From: a virus
Taxonomy: Duplodnaviria > Heunggongvirae > Uroviricota > Caudoviricetes
Virus record (IMG/VR): IMGVR_UViG_2850756110_000003
DNA: 35,235 nucleotides
Strand: one strand, 5' to 3'
Shown here: piece by piece, positions 12,830-21,950 of the stretch
How the letters are laid out: every line of letters begins with the position of its first letter
Position numbering within the stretch: the stretch's first letter is position 1
Program-made: the position numbers and the translations under genes
The notes under the pieces: generated by a model
Told to the model about the DNA's origin: nothing
The model's input: the letters and a program-made list of their open reading frames with translations, nothing else
Database searches by the model: none

Positions 12830-13158
12830 CAGTTCACCACCTGTTCAAAATCGGCCGTTACAGTCACCCATAACGCCCCCACGCTTGCCGACCATTTACG
12901 ACAAACCACCCTGATCGGTTTCCAGTCATAAGGTGGCGTCCACTGAAATGCGCGGACGCCACCGTGCCGTTCCAGAAAGGCTTTTAAAGGTGGGTGTTCA
13001 CCTTTACGAACACGTATCGTCACGCTGTAAGTCGACAGCAGATTATTCAGTCCCGCCGGGCGACGCTGTTCATAACCATCACCCAGCTTCACTGCCACCA
13101 CTTTTGGCTCTGATACCACATTCATATCCGGGCGCACCTTCCAGCGAAACGTCTCCAT
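12829..13158 (-). CDS. M: Minor tail protein M
   Basis: 109 aa, METFRWKVRPDMNVVSEPKVVAVKLGDGYEQRRPAGLN...; lambda M-like; abuts L and H. Confidence 0.9.
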   Translation of the reverse strand: METFRWKVRPDMNVVSEPKVVAVKLGDGYEQRRPAGLNNLLSTYSVTIRVRKGEHPPLKAFLERHGGVRAFQWTPPYDWKPIRVVCRKWSASVGALWVTVTADFEQVVN

Positions 13159-16100
13159 TACCGGTATGCTCCACTTAACCGGCCACCATCACGGGCCTGC
13201 TGTTGCATAAAGTCCGCGGCCGCTTTTTTCCCGAGGTCATAAACCACCTTCAGTGCTGCCGGACCTATCTGCCCGTTCGTGCCGTCGTTATTGATCCCGA
13301 TGTTGTACTGCGGGGCAAACATCACCATGCCTGAACCACCAGTATCCGCCACAACCCCCAGCTTACCATCAGCACCGCGACGCAGTGGCAGAATGGCTTC
13401 AGGTCCCGCTTCCCCCATCACACCCGCTCCTTTTGCAAAAGCAAAAAACGTCGGACGGTTAACCACCGTGCCACTGTAGCGACTCAAATCAGCAGACTGG
13501 TAAACACCGCCATCAGCATTAGTCGTGAAGCCGAATAAAGAACCGACGCCCTTTACCGCCTGCATCATGGCCATCTGTGCCATAATTCTGGCCATATCTG
13601 ACAACAGGGAAGAGGTGAAGGATTTAAAATTCAGCTTACCGGTGGTACAGAATGTCGCCAGTGCATTACCGGCACTGCTGAATGCCACTGTAAACATCTG
13701 TTCTGCCGTTCCCGCCGCATTATCCGCATCCGCCGTAAAATTCTGAAACGCCCGCATGGCACCGTTTTTCCAGTCGCCCTGCGCCACTTCCAGTTCCTGC
13801 CAGTAGCGTTTGTTTTCATTCAGTTGTCGCTTCAGGCTCCCCTTCAGCACCTCCTCAGCCCTCCGGTAGTCCTCCGTCCCGTAAGTGCCTTTCTGGCGAC
13901 TGTCATTCTCAAGCTGTTGCAACTGTTGCCGGTATTCCTGCCGGATGCGCAACTGTGCCTGGTAGCGCTGCCGCTGCTTATCCCCCATACCTGCAGTGGC
14001 AATATCCAGATTGTGCTGCTCACGCAGTGCACGTTCTTTGTCTGCCAGCTGGCTGGTCAGCTGAACCGTTTTTTTTCTCAGGTCGTTAAGCGCTGTCTGT
14101 TTCTGCAGCTCCTGCTGTTTCACATCCAGCAGCGTCAGCGCCTGAATCAGCTCATTCTTACGGGCCAGCACACTCTTTTCATCTGCCGTCAGCTTTTTCC
14201 CGTCCAGGTCGCTGATGCGCTGCTGCAGGGCCAGAAGCTGTTTATGCGCTTCAGTCATCCTTTCAGTGGCAATGCCTGCTGACTGTCTGGCAGCAGCAAT
14301 CTGCCCTTCCACCTGTGCCTGCTGCTGACTGTACTGCAGCAATAACCGGGTGGCCTCATCATTACGGGTTGCCCGTGTATTTTTCTTAATGGCTTTTTCG
14401 TAACGTTCATTTTCACGCTGTATCGCCGCATCCCTGACAGCCTGGTCGGCGTACTGCATGGCATTAATACGCGCAATTTCCCGCTGATGTCGTGCAGCTT
14501 CCGTTTCATTCATCCGGTTCAGCACGGCATTTTCAGCATTCCGGCGTTTCTGTTGCTCCTGGTAATTCCGTTCTGCCTGCGCTTTTGCATCCTGCAAATC
14601 CTTCCGGCGTTTTTTCTCCTGAAGATCGTTAAGACGCTGCTGATCGTACTCCACCTGTGTGGAGGCGTTTGTCCACGGATATTTTTTCGCGCGCTGAATT
14701 TTTTCCTGTAACGCATCAATCTGCGCATCCAGCGAGTCTTCACGACCAATATTCATGGCCGCATCCCAGAACTGCTTCCACCAGTCAGACAAGGTTTGCA
14801 GCGTACTACCCAGCGCATTGAGATTATTATCAATATCAGATGTGCGTTTACCGGTTTCCTCTGCCAGCGCAGACATGGCGATCCGGGCCGCATCACTGGA
14901 CCGCCCCTGCTCCCCAAGGACGCGTATCTGCTCAAGCTGAGTGGCAGTCAAAAAATGCAGCGCATTGTCCAGCGCCTTCGCGGCATTTACAGGATCATCC
15001 TTCAGCCGCTTAAACTGATTTATGGTATCGCTGACCGACTGGCCAACCGATCGCTCCATCTGTGCGGCAGCTTTCGCCACCATACCAATATCGTTTCCAT
15101 GAAATGCCCCACTGCCCACCACCTGTGCCAGCGCACCGGCTGCCGCATGTTGCGTGATACCATTCCCGGATATGGCCCGGCTGAGTTTCCACAACTGCCC
15201 GACAGTGACACCGGCATAATGTCCCGTCAGCGCCAGCTGACGGTTAAATTCCTCGCCCTCCTTCCGGCCGTCATGCCAGGCTTTACCCAGACCCAGGACC
15301 GCCGCGACAAGTCCGCCAATAACGCCGCCAGTCATCATGCCTTTCGGCGACATCAGTGCGCCTGTCCATACGGCACGGTTAGCCAGCGTTATCCCGGATC
15401 CCCTCAGCGCACCAAAATTGCCGCGCGCCATCTGACTGATTAACACCCCCAGCTCCCGCCGGGCTGCCGCACTTTTCAGCCCCAGCGAATGTGTGGCTTT
15501 TCCTGCCCGCTCCATTTTGCGGATATACACTTCTCCAGCACTGCTTACCCCCAGCTGAGCCGCCCTGGCGCGAAGCAACTCAGAAGACGACAGATTCTGG
15601 CGGGTTGCCTGCTCTTTAAGCTGGCGGATAAACGCCGCTTTCTGCCGGGTGGCCTGTTCCTCTGCCTGCGTCAGGGCACGGGTTTTCGCCGTGATCTCCG
15701 AAATCAGCGCCAGATAATCCTGCTGACCAACCCCGCCACTGTTTCTGGCCTGTCGGATCTGCTGCTGAATACGCTGTAATTCCTGAAGCCCCGCACCGGC
15801 CTGTTTCACACTGTCAATCTGGCGATAAAAGGCGGCAGCCGCTTTATCCTGCGCCTCCGCCAGTGCCCTGGCCTGCGCCTGTTCCTCGCGCATTTTCTGA
15901 TTCAGGGCATCCACGCGCAGACGGGTTTGTTCCACCTCACGGGCCATGCGTTCATGAGCCCGTGCATTCTTCTCCACCGTCTGCGCATGGGCTGATGCTG
16001 CTGTTGCAGCCGAAGAAGCCGCATGCATTGTCTGCCGGGCCGCCTGAGTCTGACGCTCCATAAAACGCTGCATACGGGCAGAAGACCGTTCTGCATCACC

Positions 16101-16199
16101 GGCTGCACCATTCAGAAGGTTTTTGATACGGGGAATTTCATTTTTAAACTCTGCCGCATCAATCCCCAAATCAATGACCAGGTTGGCTATCTGGTCCAT
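13158..16199 (-). CDS. H: Tail tape measure protein H
   Basis: About 1013 aa, long coiled-coil Gln/Ala/Arg-rich middle and Gly-rich C-terminus; likely start MDQIANLVIDLG... at the ATG at 16199, preceded by GGAGGTG. Confidence 0.9.
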   Translation of the reverse strand: MDQIANLVIDLGIDAAEFKNEIPRIKNLLNGAAGDAERSSARMQRFMERQTQAARQTMHAASSAATAASAHAQTVEKNARAHERMAREVEQTRLRVDALNQKMREEQAQARALAEAQDKAAAAFYRQIDSVKQAGAGLQELQRIQQQIRQARNSGGVGQQDYLALISEITAKTRALTQAEEQATRQKAAFIRQLKEQATRQNLSSSELLRARAAQLGVSSAGEVYIRKMERAGKATHSLGLKSAAARRELGVLISQMARGNFGALRGSGITLANRAVWTGALMSPKGMMTGGVIGGLVAAVLGLGKAWHDGRKEGEEFNRQLALTGHYAGVTVGQLWKLSRAISGNGITQHAAAGALAQVVGSGAFHGNDIGMVAKAAAQMERSVGQSVSDTINQFKRLKDDPVNAAKALDNALHFLTATQLEQIRVLGEQGRSSDAARIAMSALAEETGKRTSDIDNNLNALGSTLQTLSDWWKQFWDAAMNIGREDSLDAQIDALQEKIQRAKKYPWTNASTQVEYDQQRLNDLQEKKRRKDLQDAKAQAERNYQEQQKRRNAENAVLNRMNETEAARHQREIARINAMQYADQAVRDAAIQRENERYEKAIKKNTRATRNDEATRLLLQYSQQQAQVEGQIAAARQSAGIATERMTEAHKQLLALQQRISDLDGKKLTADEKSVLARKNELIQALTLLDVKQQELQKQTALNDLRKKTVQLTSQLADKERALREQHNLDIATAGMGDKQRQRYQAQLRIRQEYRQQLQQLENDSRQKGTYGTEDYRRAEEVLKGSLKRQLNENKRYWQELEVAQGDWKNGAMRAFQNFTADADNAAGTAEQMFTVAFSSAGNALATFCTTGKLNFKSFTSSLLSDMARIMAQMAMMQAVKGVGSLFGFTTNADGGVYQSADLSRYSGTVVNRPTFFAFAKGAGVMGEAGPEAILPLRRGADGKLGVVADTGGSGMVMFAPQYNIGINNDGTNGQIGPAALKVVYDLGKKAAADFMQQQARDGGRLSGAYR

Positions 16200-16507
16200 A
16201 ACGCACACCTCCGGAAATACCTTCCCCAAGATGCATCAGTTCTTCGTCCGTTCGCTCCGGTATCCCGTTCTCTTCCGGTAAAAGGCTGAAATCAGCCACC
16301 GCAGCATCACTGCTGCCGGACACCATTCTCACGATCAATGCCTTCAGCGAGGCAAACTGCGCATCCATCCACACATCACTGAAGCTCTGCATCCGGAAAT
16401 AATCGCCCCCTCACCAAGCTCAGTGGCCGACATTTCCGACAGCATCCGCCGCCAGTCTGCCCGCCGGAACTCCCGGGCAAGCCGCATGACAAACTGCATT
16501 TCCCGCG
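16171..16507 (-). pseudogene. T: Region expected to encode the T extension of the G-T tail chaperone; appears frame-disrupted
   Basis: The -1 frame from the end of G stops after about 57 codons (near 16337); a different frame (ORF 16171-16392) then runs to overlap the H start. No clean G GGA AAG heptamer seen. Confidence 0.3.
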
Positions 16508-16952: not shown

Positions 16953-17753
16953 TTATGGTGCGCTGACGGTCACCGCAGCCACTGCCACAAACTCTCCGTC
17001 AGAGGTCATGCCCACGATGCTGACACTGCCCTGCTTCACGCCTTTCACCGTGGCCACAAGCCCGCTCAGGGTCACCGAAGCAGTCTGAGGATCTGACGAA
17101 TGCACACTGATCGCTTTGTCACTGGCCCCATCAGGTTTTACTGTAAAGGTCAGTGTGGTGGTTGCTCCCGCTTTGACACTGACAGATGCCGGTGCCACCG
17201 TCAGTCCGGTAACACCCACGGTTTCAGCGCCCTCCTCTGCCAGATACGGACGCCCCACACCGCTGATTTTTACAGTACGGGTCATCACCTCTTTTGAGGT
17301 AATGGTTTTACCCAGTGAACTCATCCAGCCACGGAAAACATCAACCGTACCGTTGGGGTATTTGATACGAAACGCGCAGACTTCACCGGAATCGAACAAC
17401 TGAACCAGTTTTTTCTGCCCGCTGTCACCCGGACGCCAGGCCAGCGTCGCCAAAGTATCACCGACGGATTTCTGCCCCTGGGTTGTCGTTTTCCAGTCTG
17501 CATCTTCATCATCGAGATAAGTGTCATCTTCTGCATCAGCGGTCATTTCGCCAGGTTGCAGATCCTTCACCATCGCAAGACGCAGCCAGTCAGTGTCCGA
17601 CAAAGGGTTCGCAAACGCATCGCCCTTGCCGGTGTACATCCAGAACGTCGTTCCCGCACCTTTCGTCTTTGCCAGTGGATTTGGTGGTAAGGCAGTATGA
17701 CTTTCCGTGAGACAGATGCTGGCCAACGTGGGATATTTAACGCGGGTTAACAT
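16953..17753 (-). CDS. V: Major tail protein V with C-terminal Ig-like domain
   Basis: ...KTKGAGTTFWMYTGKGDAFANPLSDTDWLRL... matches the lambda V core; C-terminal Big_2-like region. The first roughly 20 codons (MLTRVKYPTLASICLTESHT) do not resemble V and may come from the adjacent IS. Confidence 0.8.
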   Translation of the reverse strand: MLTRVKYPTLASICLTESHTALPPNPLAKTKGAGTTFWMYTGKGDAFANPLSDTDWLRLAMVKDLQPGEMTADAEDDTYLDDEDADWKTTTQGQKSVGDTLATLAWRPGDSGQKKLVQLFDSGEVCAFRIKYPNGTVDVFRGWMSSLGKTITSKEVMTRTVKISGVGRPYLAEEGAETVGVTGLTVAPASVSVKAGATTTLTFTVKPDGASDKAISVHSSDPQTASVTLSGLVATVKGVKQGSVSIVGMTSDGEFVAVAAVTVSAP

Positions 17754-19212
17754 CGTTGTCAGAGCCGCATGGGTGAGCTGTTGCTACACCCCGGTATTTC
17801 CACCACGGAGGCCAGCATGAACAACAATAACACATTGTACGTCGGGTTAGATGTTCACAAAGAATCGATTACTGTCGCTTATGCTATCAATTCAGAACCT
17901 GTTGAACTGATGGGTAAAATTGGCACATCACCTACTGATATTCAGAATCTTTGTAAACGTCTCAGGTCAAAGTCATCGCAGGTCAGTATCGTTTATGAAG
18001 CGGGGCCCTGTGGTTATGGACTTTATCGTCGGCTGGTGAAATCCGGTTTTGACTGCATGGTCTGCGCCCCCTCACTTATCCCGAAAAAACCGGGGAGCGG
18101 GTTAAAACCGATCGCCGTGATGCCATCAGACTTGTGCGTTCACTGCGTGCAGGAGATCTTTCTGCTGTCTACGTACCCGGCATTGAAGATGAGGCATTCC
18201 GGGATTTGGCCCGGGCATGGGCATCTGCCCGCGATGATTTACGGCATGCAAGGCAACGTCTGAAATCGTTTCTTCTGGTTCATGGGGTCCATTATGTCGG
18301 GCGAGCAGATTGGGGCCCTGCACACCGACGCTGGCTCAGCAAATACTCATTCGAAAGTCCCTGGCGACAATTAGCTTTTGACGAACACCGTCGTACAATA
18401 GAAGACCGGCAGGCACAATGTGAACGGCTGGAATCCGCCCTGAAGGAGGCCGTTACCGAATGGAGGCTGTATCCGGTAGTAGAGGCGCTGCAAGCCATGC
18501 GAGGGATTCAGTTTATTACTGCGGTTGGATTAATTTCTGAACTGGGTGATCTGACCCGTTTTGAACATCCACGACAACTGATGTCATGGTTTGGTATCAC
18601 GCCATCAGAATATTCATCGGGTGGAAGCAGACATCAGGGCAGCATTACCAAAGCCGGAAACAGCTATGCCAGAAAGCTATTGGTCGAGGCAGCGTGGAGT
18701 TACCGTCATCCGGCACGCATCAGTCCGGCAATACAAAAAAGGCAGGAAAATTTACCCCGCCCCGTCATTGACAGAGCATGGGATGCTCAACTCAGGCTTT
18801 GTAAGAGGTATCGAAAACTTCAGGCCAAAGGAAAGAATGTCAATATTACAATTGTTGCTGTTGCACGTGAGCTGGCGGGTTTTATCTGGGATATGGGCCG
18901 AATAGCAATGTCTGTCGCACAACAACCACAATGTCACAAATAAAAAATGAGAATAACCAGTTCCCTGAAGGCGACGTAGCCCGGTACAAGAGTAACCCAC
19001 GTTAGCGCTTGGCGACGGCGGAACAAAGCTGATTCGCGACGTAAGAAAGTGGCAGGCTCATATGACGGACCTCTGTAATGCGGTATCCAACCCGCGAATA
19101 TCAGCGTGATTCACCGTCGGATTTACTGCTACGTCGCCCTCAGGGAATTAAACCTAAAAAGAAAATCGTCAAAATTAGAGATTCCGGTTTGACACGGAAA
19201 GTCATATCAGCG
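17700..19212 (+). mobile_element. IS110-family insertion sequence (boundaries approximate)
   Basis: Holds a DEDD-type IS110-family transposase gene; sits where the U-V junction should be; this family has no obvious terminal inverted repeats, so ends are inferred from the flanking V and U remnants. Confidence 0.4.
17817..18943 (+). pseudogene. IS110-family transposase, frameshifted
   Basis: MNNNNTLYVGLDVHKESITVAYA... (ORF to 18263) continues in another frame as ...ERVKTDRRDAIRLVRSLRAGDLSAVYVPG... (ORF 18134-18943); the shift is at the run CCGAAAAAACCGGGG near 18085-18095. Confidence 0.8.
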
Positions 19213-19561
19213 TCAACGGAGCACCGTATTGACGCTTACCCTGAAGACATCGGTAAGTTGTGACGGCTGACAGCACATCCGTACTCCACCGGGAAGGAAG
19301 AGCGTGACTGGCTCATTCGTGACGGGCTGTGGTACATCAGCATGCAGTGGTGGCGCAATATGAACGTAAGCGTACAGCCTGCCAGTCGTCCTCATCCGTC
19401 ATTTTTCCGGTGTACTGCGCATCACTCAGCCACACCGCCACGGCGGGCAGTTCCTGCGCATCAATAAATGCCGGAAGCCCGTCAAAAAGCACGACATTCC
19501 CCCCGCATTCGCCCTTCAGGCTTGCCAGTACTGCCTGGCGGATTTGTGTGTGCCTGTTCAT
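19213..19561 (-). pseudogene. U: Minor tail protein U, N-terminal part intact then frame-disrupted
   Basis: MNRHTQIRQAVLASLKGECGGNVVLFDGLPAFIDAQELPAVAVWL... resembles the lambda U N-terminus (memory); premature stop at 19337 with a second frame continuing to 19213. Confidence 0.5.
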
Positions 19562-20145
19562 CCCAAATGTATCCTCAGTTGCTGTTTCAGGGCATACCCC
19601 AGCTGTTTCGGCATTTCCGCGGCAATGATGCGGTCGCGGGCATCCTCAAATGCCTGTGTCAGCGGTCCGGCCAGCGGAATTTTCACAACCTCCACGGGCA
19701 GACGATTTTTTCTGGGCCGCCCCTTACTGTCCTTTCCTGTTTCAAAACACGCTTCAGGAAGACGCCTGAGAACATGCCAGCGACCGTTCGCCAGCTGCTG
19801 GATAAACGCACCACGAAAAAAGTATTTCCCCACCTTCAGTCCGTCACCGGCACGCCGGCATGTTGTGCCAAGCTTAATGGCGGGCAGATTGCCCCGGTTA
19901 ACACGGATACGGGCATACATTTTTCCTGCCGGACTGGCTTTAAATACCCGGACGCGCTGACGCACCAGTTTCAGGGGGCCCCCCTTCACCTGGTTATCTC
20001 CCGCAACGGTATTCCTGGCGACCTGCCGGGTGGCAACCGAGACAACTTTTGCAGCAACCCGGTTTACTGCCCATGCGCTGGCCTGCGGCACCATACGGGT
20101 ATCAAGACTGTTCAGATTGCGGATGGCATTCTCAAGCACCCTCAT
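19558..20145 (-). CDS. Z: Tail completion protein Z
   Basis: 195 aa with the conserved ...IPGAFIQQLANGRWHVLRRL... and ...PKQLGYALKQQLRI... stretches recalled from lambda Z. Confidence 0.85.
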   Translation of the reverse strand: MRVLENAIRNLNSLDTRMVPQASAWAVNRVAAKVVSVATRQVARNTVAGDNQVKGGPLKLVRQRVRVFKASPAGKMYARIRVNRGNLPAIKLGTTCRRAGDGLKVGKYFFRGAFIQQLANGRWHVLRRLPEACFETGKDSKGRPRKNRLPVEVVKIPLAGPLTQAFEDARDRIIAAEMPKQLGYALKQQLRIHLG

Positions 20146-20392
20146 AATATCCCCCTGCCCTTACGTTTCCTGCTCCTTCACGCCGCAACCGGATATAACT
20201 ACATCCGCCGTCATCAGGAGTAATACGATCCACGCTGAAAGACTCCCGGCCAATCATCAGCGAATCATTGCGACACAGCTGTAAAATATCTGCCGTTTTC
20301 ACAAACAGGGATGGTAAAGAGTCTTCAATACGCACACCGCCGGCTACCAGAGAAATACTTTCAGGATCGTCAAAAACGCCGGAAATCCGGTG

Positions 20393-21818
20393 TAATGCCG
20401 ATCAGTTAAGGATCAGTTGACCGATCCAGTGGCTGTGTAAGAATCCGGAAACGCTCACTTGTTTCCGGATTTTTTTATGCACATTGGACAGGCTCTTGAT
20501 CTGGTATCCCGTTACGATTCTCTGCGTAACCCACTGACTTCTCTGGGGGATTACCTCGACCCCGAACTCATCTCTCGTTGCCTTGCCGAATCAGGTACTG
20601 TAACGCTACGCAAGCGCCGTCTTCCCCTCGAAATGATGGTCTGGTGTATTGTTGGCATGGCGCTTGAGCGTAAAGAACCTCTTCACCAGATTGTGAATCG
20701 CCTGGACATCATGCTGCCGGGCAATCGCCCCTTCGTTGCCCCCAGTGCCGTTATTCAGGCCCGCCAGCGCCTGGGAAGTGAGGCTGTCCGCCGCGTGTTC
20801 ACGAAAACAGCGCAGCTCTGGCATAACGCCACGCCGCATCCGCACTGGTGCGGCCTGACCCTGCTGGCCATCGATGGTGTGTTCTGGCGCACACCGGATA
20901 CACCAGAGAACGATGCAGCCTTCCCCCGCCAGACACATGCCGGGAACCCGGCGCTCTACCCGCAGGTCAAAATGGTCTGCCAGATGGAACTGACCAGCCA
21001 TCTGCTGACGGCTGCAGCCTTCGGCACGATGAAGAACAGCGAAAATGAGCTTGCTGAGCAACTTATAGAACAAACCGGCGATAACACTCTGACGTTAATG
21101 GATAAAGGTTATTACTCACTGGGACTGTTAAATGCCTGGAGCCTGGCGGGAGAACACCGCCACTGGATGATACCTCTCAGAAAGGGAGCGCAATATGAAG
21201 AGCTCAGAAAACTGGGTAAAGGCGATCATCTGGTGAAGCTGAAAACCAGCCCGCAGGCACGAAAAAAGTGGCCGGGACTGGGAAATGAAGTGACAGCCCG
21301 CCTGCTGACCGTGACGCGCAAAGGAAAAGTCTGCCATCTGCTGACGTCGATGACGGACGCCATGCGCTTCCCCGGAGGAGAAATGGCGGATCTGTACAGT
21401 CATCGCTGGGAAATTGAACTGGGATACAGGGAGATAAAACAGACGATGCAACTGAGCAGGCTGACGCTGAGAAGTAAAAAGCCGGAGCTTGTGGAGCAAG
21501 AGCTGTGGGGTGTCTTACTGGCTTATAATCTGGTGAGATATCAGATGATTAAAATGGCGGAACATCTGAAAGGTTACTGGCCGAATCAACTGAGTTTCTC
21601 AGAATCATGCGGAATGGTGATGAGAATGCTGATGACATTGCAGGGCGCTTCACCGGGACGTATACCGGAGCTGATGCGCGATCTTGCAAGTATGGGACAA
21701 CTTGTGAAATTACCGACGAGAAGGGGAAGGGCCTTCCCGAGAGTGGTAAAGGAGAGGCCCTGGAAATACCCCACAGCCCCGAAAAAGAGCCAGTCAGTTG
21801 CTTAACTGACTGGCATTA
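20393..21818 (+). mobile_element. IS4 copy A (1426 bp) with 13-bp target-site duplication
   Basis: Ends TAATGCCGATCAGTTAAG (20393) and CTTAACTGACTGGCATTA (21818); direct repeat CGGAAATCCGGTG at 20380-20392 and 21819-21831. Confidence 0.9.
20477..21805 (+). CDS. insG: IS4 transposase (InsG)
   Basis: [27 protein letters not shown]... 442 aa; DDE transposase of IS4. Confidence 0.9.
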
Positions 21819-21950
21819 CGGAAATCCGGTGTCCTTTTAACTGGCCTGATGTAATGACTGCAGTAATGCCCATATTGCGAATAATGGCCCTGTCTGCGAG
21901 ATCAAGCGCGGCATCAAACAGATTATCGAAATCAGCCACAATCCCCCCTG

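Follow-up and report, generated by a model that had tools for sequence, protein, structure and literature searches.

ISSso6 in IS66-family debris of a degraded Shigella prophage: insertion site, predicted target guides and a frameshift of doubtful reality

The IMG/VR virus record IMGVR_UViG_2850756110_000003, a stretch of 35,235 nucleotides (nt) that is called the window in the following, lies in a defective, heavily degraded lambdoid prophage in a Shigella genome and is identical to GCA_002949415.1, CP026805.1 (locus L012; 100% over 12,225 base pairs (bp)). Between the tail tube gene V and the stump of gene U, the window carries an insertion sequence (IS) which, judged from its sequence, is a copy of the already known element ISSso6 of the IS110 family and an ordinary insertion. 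In the account favoured here, which as a whole is regarded as highly probable, IS66-family debris was already present at this site when ISSso6 later inserted into it under the guidance of an RNA.

An earlier note on this DNA, which was made from the sequence alone, had placed an IS110-family DEDD transposase gene between V and the U remnant, and this is confirmed by protein family matches. A megablast search of 5,426 complete Escherichia coli genomes yielded sequences with 99-99.9% identity that are annotated as 'IS110-like element ISSso6 family transposase', and the identity of the window element to named ISSso6 copies is 99.9-100% over 1519-1520 bp. The name is further given by the N-terminus of the transposase, which is that of the ISfinder ISSso6 protein in the supplement of PMC11187229. 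Three database copies that were fetched with their flanks each contain one open reading frame (ORF) of 375 amino acids (aa). An intact homologue, the E. coli copy L002, matches PF01548 (DEDD; E = 2.4e-11), PF02371 (E = 8e-24) and the NCBIfam model NF033542 'IS110 family RNA-guided transposase' (273.9 bits; cut-off 140). In the window ORF, PF02371 is the only Pfam domain detected and the N-terminal domain is split by a frameshift; the first ORF (ORF1) of 148 aa has no Pfam match because the DEDD domain is cut. The literature found on ISSso6 consists of mere listings, none of which covers its target or the frameshift.

Ends, empty site and order of events

The ends of the element can be read from loci in which the insertion site is empty. 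These loci were found via an exact look-up of the 74-aa ORF of the U stump, with hits in many assemblies of this prophage. In seven loci that were compared, and in 10 similar ones besides, ISSso6 is absent, yet the same U stump, the same truncated V and the same debris are present; among these loci, only L012 is occupied. When empty and occupied sites are aligned, the element is seen to separate GTAAG from CGTCAACGG, and removal of 17692-19210 restores the empty site exactly. There is no target duplication, and AG is the only sequence shared. As this dinucleotide closes both the left flank (..TAAG) and the right end of the element (..TCAG), the boundary of ISSso6 floats by 2 nt. Intact ISSso6 copies have a length of 1520 bp.

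The uninterrupted target in the empty sites is a 33-mer, GTAAGCGTCAACGGAGCACCGTATTGACGCTTA, with 10,899 occurrences in E. coli, spread over 4309 of the 5426 genomes; it forms the very end of ISEc23-type IS66 elements on the tnpC side. Ends at 17687 and 19238, which had been derived from the three database copies, were dropped, as the empty site assigns 5 nt on the left and 28 nt on the right to this IS66 repeat tip; the block common to many database copies overshoots the element because those copies are also located in IS66 tips. The ends at 17700 and 19561 that were estimated in the earlier note have to be revised accordingly: the element comprises 17692-19210 and is followed by IS66-family debris (19211-19373) and then by U (19374-19561). 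The absence of terminal inverted repeats, which the note had given as the reason for setting only approximate ends, does not hold either, since a 14-bp pair is present in subterminal position (Table 1).

The debris consists of three parts: the ISEc23-type repeat tip of 33 bp, an interior piece of the ISEc49 tnpA gene of 128 bp and a second repeat tip of the IS66 type. Its assignment to the IS66 family is based on the identity of the terminal repeat and of the tnpA sequence to named elements; positions 19239-19366 are 100% identical to an annotated tnpA interior in CFT073 and other genomes. The last 8 nt of the second tip GTAAGCGTACAGCCTG, ACAGCCTG, double as U sequence, and the transition into U is therefore a microhomology junction. 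Two other interpretations of this region were rejected: positions 19239-19373 are not a diverged U allele, as they match ISEc49 tnpA, and TAAGCGT at the U junction is not a copy of an ISSso6 end but belongs to the IS66-type repeat tip.

Alignment of V and U to intact relatives, as proposed in the earlier note, reveals that the 3' half of U, the U-V spacer and nt 1-7 of V have been replaced; about 217 bp in total are lost. The earlier note was right in regarding U as damaged, but the gene is not frame-disrupted: only codons 1-63 remain, and these are fused to foreign sequence. For V, about 20 non-V starting codons without a ribosome binding site (RBS) had been described, which agrees with the 23 codons that are counted here.

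These lesions had been attributed to the IS110-family element itself, whose entry at the U-V junction would have broken U and put other sequence in place of the V start. At first sight, the arrangement fits this explanation, as the damaged genes lie on either side of the element and the start of the V ORF is within it. However, the same U stump and a V gene without nt 1-7 are already found in genomes that lack the element, and the DNA to its right is IS66-family DNA instead of U. Furthermore, insertion is conservative in the IS110 family, and deletion of 17692-19210 recreates the empty site. Thus, this explanation is regarded as extremely improbable. Because genomes without ISSso6 carry identical lesions, ISSso6 is innocent of them: the damage to U and V is older than ISSso6 and is tied to IS66-family DNA, and ISSso6 deleted nothing.

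The following order of events is proposed. In a first step, about 170 bp of IS66-family debris would have taken the place of the 3' half of U, the spacer and nt 1-7 of V, all of which were lost from the prophage. Later, a single ISSso6 copy would have entered the repeat tip, with GTAAG on its left and CGTCAA on its right, a step that would neither remove nor duplicate any bases apart from the shared core AG.

Target rule and predicted guide RNA

Insertion of ISSso6 is sequence-specific and involves a shared core, as is typical of the IS110 family. In 13 ISSso6 copies at different sites, the left flank is (G/A)TAAG throughout, and CG(T/C) follows wherever the right end is readable. Many of these sites are IS66 repeat tips; chromosomal sites are found upstream of nhaA, at an ornithine/lysine decarboxylase gene, at a transketolase gene and beside a gene of the NicO family (nickel/cobalt efflux).

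Relatives of the element were collected by scanning one genome per species, and the best 80 loci (L028-L107; 71-81% protein identity) belong almost all to Paraburkholderia, Caballeronia and Cupriavidus. The closest relatives outside the Enterobacteriaceae thus reside in soil bacteria of the Burkholderiaceae, often with many copies per genome and with a target that differs by lineage; no intermediate hosts are found among these 80 best loci. The Burkholderiaceae relatives keep the ends of the element, ..AG^(G/T/A)CAGTATGACTnnnCGTG ... CACGnnnAGTCATATCA(G/A)^ (with ^ marking the junctions), and their left junction retains AG within an otherwise variable flank. The middle of the subterminal repeats is variable as well and changes together at both ends. 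In some relatives (L058, L062, L063 and others), the last base of the right end is G or A in different copies of one element (..ATATCAA^ versus ..ATATCAG^). The left flank always ends with ..AG despite this variation, which may arise from the way in which strand exchange settles the second core position.

In the 3' non-coding region, an alignment of the relatives is conserved throughout save for two short blocks, and the flanks differ from element to element. The region is predicted to fold into a structured RNA, with a z-score of -4.7 for the minimum free energy. A consensus fold of 21 relatives comprises 50 pairs, seven of which show compensatory changes, and the two variable blocks face each other across one internal loop. 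A scan of positions 17000-20500 against Rfam at E <= 1 yielded no family. The DNA of block 1, TAGCGCTT, is the reverse complement of the core and the right flank, while block 2 corresponds to the left flank and the core in the same sense (Table 1).

The relation between blocks and flanks was analysed for covariation in 28 distinct elements, using non-core positions only and 10,000 permuted pairings. Of 140 positions, 113 agree between block 1 and the right flank of the same element, compared to 45.3 +/- 5.7 (maximum 72) for permuted pairings. For block 2 and its own left flank, 89 of 140 positions match, compared to 49.9 +/- 5.1 (maximum 70). In neither case did any of the 10,000 permutations reach the observed value. 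A predicted structured RNA with loop nucleotides that covary with the flanks, as known from the IS110 family, is therefore present, and the 267-nt region after the transposase gene is predicted to encode a bridge RNA or seekRNA with two target guides. As these guides read ACGUAAG and UAGCGCUU, the ideal target of ISSso6 is predicted to be ACGTAAG^CGCTA; candidate target sequences are ACGTAAGCGCTA and, for the IS66 tip, GTAAGCGTCAACGG. All 8 positions of block 1 are matched by the sites upstream of nhaA and at the decarboxylase gene. The IS66 tips (AAG^CGTCA) form one G.U pair and one mismatch with block 1; as targets, repeat tips of the IS66 type (GTAAG^CGTCA) are abundant and near-cognate.

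Two further sites with related sequences were observed. Positions 19364-19375 of the window contain a second, unoccupied target of the ISSso6 type, ACGTAAG^CGTAC, which matches the left guide at 7 of 7 positions and equals the occupied site of locus L018. On the E. coli plasmid NZ_CP024246.1 (L016, 901-934), a palindromic 34-mer, GTAAGCGTCAACGGAGCACCGTATTGACGCTTAC, is found with no IS66 genes in its surroundings. The outer 11 nt on either side resemble IS66 ends, and the 34-mer might act as a minimal pair of IS66 ends.

Two motifs in the second arm of the RNA are candidate donor guides: AUAUCAG (19098-19104) corresponds to the right end and the core in the same sense, and UACUGC (19125-19130) is complementary to the left end GCAGTA. 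GGCAG (19052-19056) is not claimed as a guide for the left end, as it stays constant across relatives that differ in the first left-end base.

With respect to known systems, ISSso6 shares several properties with IS621 (PMC11208160, PMC11208158): a DEDD recombinase, one internal loop that holds both target guides, a left-target guide for the bottom strand and a right-target guide for the top strand, each including the core dinucleotide, the absence of any target duplication other than the core, and a target that is programmable among relatives. In contrast to IS621, the RNA is located in the right instead of the left end, the order of the guides in the loop is reversed, the core is AG rather than CT, and the subterminal repeats are long (14 bp). 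The protein has 375 aa, compared to 315-330 aa in the IS492/IS621 branch.

In its layout, ISSso6 rather resembles elements of the IS1111 type such as ISEc11, ISPa11 and ISKpn4 (PMC11187229), which also have a downstream non-coding region and subterminal inverted repeats. In addition, the match to the top strand is located 5' of the match to the bottom strand, as in IS1111-type seekRNAs (PMC11187229). The 14-bp subterminal repeats, a left end of 125 nt and the right non-coding end of 267 nt all agree with the IS1111 group, whereas the protein does not: it has 375 aa instead of 330-350 aa and the motif GITPSEYSSG (G--P----SG) instead of GL-P----S(t)G. The identity matrix that supplements PMC11187229 has values of only 17-25% in its ISSso6 row, with the elements behind those columns not having been checked. 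The layout is IS1111-like, while length and motif of the protein agree with the IS110 branch as PMC11187229 divides the family.

Like IS1111-type elements, ISSso6 has a perfect -35 box, TTGACA, near its right end. Joining of the ends would place this box 17 nt from CAGTAT (17693-17698), and TTGACA-17 nt-CAGTAT may thus serve as a promoter at the junction of a circular form, for which precedents have been described in ISEc11/ISEc21 and in IS621 (PMC11187229, PMC11208160). By analogy, ISSso6 would be excised as a circle, be expressed from the junction promoter and be inserted via strand exchange at the core by the DEDD recombinase.

The preference for other mobile elements as prey has parallels, too. 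IS4321 and IS5075 target the terminal repeats of the Tn21 family, reportedly described by Partridge and Hall in 2003, and ISEc21 targets transposase genes of the IS3 family. The prey of ISSso6 differs from these, being the outermost tip of IS66-family repeats (GTAAG^CG) in addition to chromosomal sites that match the guides.

Some points weigh against an RNA-guided insertion into pre-existing debris. The guides match the site in the window imperfectly, with 5 of 7 positions on the left and 3 of 5 plus one G.U pair on the right, and the ends that would be recognized by the candidate donor guides hardly vary among relatives. Beyond ends, target and guides, the mechanism leans on published relatives. 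For the formation of the IS66 debris, no intermediate state was found among the loci examined.

The frameshift in the transposase gene

The frame break that had been noticed at a G run near position 18092 is present, but the reality of the lesion is doubtful. The window has GGGG at this position (G4), whereas the three intact copies and the ISfinder protein require GGGGG (G5); this is the sole difference between the window element and the E. coli copy L002. A shift to the -1 frame, which is open from 18053, restores the protein. With its surroundings, the run reads AAAAAACCGGGGAGCGGG as G4 and AAAAAACCGGGGGAGCGGG as G5, and the G4 allele is present at 11 loci in at least six Shigella assemblies. 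Seven of these copies are identical to the window over 1519 bp, two have one single-nucleotide difference and two are truncated.

On balance, G4 is slightly more likely a homopolymer undercall of long-read sequencing than a real mutation. Records with the exact G4 sequence derive mostly from long-read complete assemblies, with contigs of more than 1 Mb in 15 of 19 blocks compared to 170 of 2016 for the intact protein. None of the 97 ISSso6 copies in 43 complete E. coli genomes has G4, and at the same chromosomal sites, G4 in one genome is opposed by G5 in a sister genome; single genomes also harbour intact copies alongside G4 copies. Moreover, the window assembly has a second private loss of one G from a G5 run at position 22360 (TAAAAAAC-GGGGCATA, context AAAAAAC-GGGG), where seven of seven other assemblies have G5, two of them from outside that complete-genome batch. 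As its context matches that of the ISSso6 frameshift, the deletion at 22360 is probably an undercall of the window assembly.

Two assemblies of the same prophage, GCA_002950175.1 (L013) and GCA_002950075.1 (L014), have nine and three private one-base deletions, respectively, within about 13 kb, located in G/C runs of 3-6 nt. These deletions split the genes for the IS4 transposase, Z, G and the tape measure. Both assemblies look error-prone and are taken as long-read from their accession series and error pattern, so that their 'pseudogenes' need care.

The opposite reading, to which a somewhat smaller but still considerable probability is assigned, regards G4 as a real inactivating mutation, with this copy and identical, likewise transposase-dead G4 copies at 10 or more other sites being moved in trans by intact ISSso6 copies of the same cell. 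It can draw on the nine sites with complete G4 copies that are identical or nearly so, on the proper GTAAG^CG flanks of all G4 copies with readable junctions and on the coexistence of intact and G4 copies within one assembly (GCA_002950315.1, GCA_002968185.1). Action of transposase and seekRNA in trans has been demonstrated for mini-elements of ISEc11 and ISEc21 (PMC11187229). Further observations tell against an undercall: at least 9 copies from at least 6 assemblies differ over their 1519 bp in nothing but G4, the C5 and A6 runs close by were never miscalled in those copies and their other homopolymers are unaffected, and 148-aa ORFs have also been deposited by other projects, for S. boydii 3594-74 and S. 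flexneri K-315. If G4 is real, the window copy is non-autonomous but still has its ends and guide RNA.

Bypass of the frameshift would be a further explanation, in which the ribosome or RNA polymerase slips by -1 on the A6 tract (CCG AAA AAA CCG GGG) and a near-native transposase with one P-to-T change is formed. The A6 tract is located 4 nt upstream of the G run, and a slip anywhere in 18053-18095 would restore the protein. However, the heptamer is out of register with X XXY YYZ, no stimulatory element was identified, and the reference as well as the E. coli and Burkholderiaceae relatives have a single continuous ORF, so that no selection for recoding is visible. A programmed -1 frameshift as in IS1 or IS3 is not indicated by these features, and bypass is considered hardly likely. 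In a tentative and rather doubtful scenario, a real G4 allele would have reached 10 or more sites in several Shigella lineages as a transposase-dead element that continues to produce its guide RNA. It would then be either a natural non-autonomous bridge-RNA element that uses intact ISSso6 or one that relies on low-level -1 slippage on A6.

Two groups of records could not be used as evidence. The 148-aa ORFs in short-read contigs (Logan) were rejected as proof of G4, as they derive from a different, decayed copy with other indels. Records of a 245-aa ORF2 in S. sonnei drafts are unusable, since a contig that begins inside the element would presumably give the same gene call. A relic similar to ISSso6 (96-97% identity) at a locus between an autotransporter gene and CaiF/GrlA (L121-L128) is fixed in several short-read assemblies and has other indels in the A6-CC-G5 stretch (A6-C-G5; A7-C-G6). 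As the indels differ between relic and window, this stretch has been struck more than once.

Features of the region and meaning of the insertion

The tail-gene block of the prophage is located on the minus strand and comprises genes for the tape measure (13158-16229), G/T, V, U and Z (19558-20145); the features of the U-V region are compiled in Table 1. The longest V ORF (16953-17753, minus strand) encodes a 266-aa fusion with IS-derived codons at its start; the extension to 17753 comprises 5 nt from the IS66 tip and 62 nt from ISSso6. Upstream of this hybrid ORF, no Shine-Dalgarno sequence is visible, and an exact look-up of the 266-aa sequence in the protein collection yielded no record. In genomes with the empty site, V is called from an internal Met with 228 aa. 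The U stump ORF (19337-19561) has its last 11 codons in the debris. Further along, the FI gene (21951-22334, minus strand) is flanked by two IS4 copies (20392-21821 and 22374-23800), the first of which has its transposase at 20459-21805. The FII gene (Phage_attach) of relatives is missing from the window and likewise in L010 and L012.

Table 1. Coordinates of the features in the U-V region of the window
Feature	Position	Strand	Remarks
V (tail tube)	16953-17686	-	without first 7 nt and RBS; from alignment with intact relatives
GTAAG, left 5 nt of split 33-mer target	17687-17691	.	33-mer uninterrupted in empty-site loci
ISSso6 copy	17692-19210	+	1519 bp; from empty-site alignment; same ends in 12 differently flanked copies
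Left subterminal inverted repeat TATGACTTTCCGTG	17696-17709	+	14 bp; partner 19193-19206
Transposase RBS GGAGG	17807-17811	+	read from sequence
Transposase gene (DEDD recombinase)	17817-18943	+	split: ORF1 17817-18263, then -1 frame open 18053-18943 (stop)
G4 run	18092-18095	+	G5 in reference copies; preceded by A6-CC (18084-18091)
Structured non-coding RNA (predicted bridge/seekRNA)	18957-19149	+	about 190 nt; long closing stem, two arms with internal loops
Predicted right-target guide UAGCGCUU (block 1)	19003-19010	+	5' side of first internal loop; complements core and right flank (AAG^CGCUA)
Predicted left-target guide ACGUAAG (block 2)	19039-19045	+	3' side of same loop; left flank and core, same sense
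TTGACA, perfect -35 box	19189-19194	+	16 nt from right end; conserved in relatives
Right subterminal inverted repeat CACGGAAAGTCATA	19193-19206	+	14 bp
CGTCAACGGAGCACCGTATTGACGCTTA, right 28 nt of same 33-mer	19211-19238	.	from empty-site loci; ISEc23 terminus
ISEc49 (IS66 family) tnpA internal fragment	19239-19366	-	128 bp, about nt 180-307 of gene
GTAAGCGTACAGCCTG, tnpA-side repeat tip of common IS66-like element	19366-19381	+	16 nt identical
U remnant	19374-19561	-	codons 1-63; PF06141 positions 1-62 of 130; from alignment with intact U

An IS110-family element inside the terminal repeat of another IS is easily mis-bounded, and damage to neighbouring genes can be wrongly pinned on the most conspicuous insertion. 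Frameshifts in G/C runs of Shigella assemblies that are based on long reads only should not be taken as biology without the reads. Beyond correct annotation, the finding is of little consequence; whether G4 is real and has spread is a point of some interest. As a worked example with its target, AG core and guide positions, backed by covariation with Burkholderiaceae relatives, ISSso6 could be used to predict its insertion sites in Shigella and E. coli.

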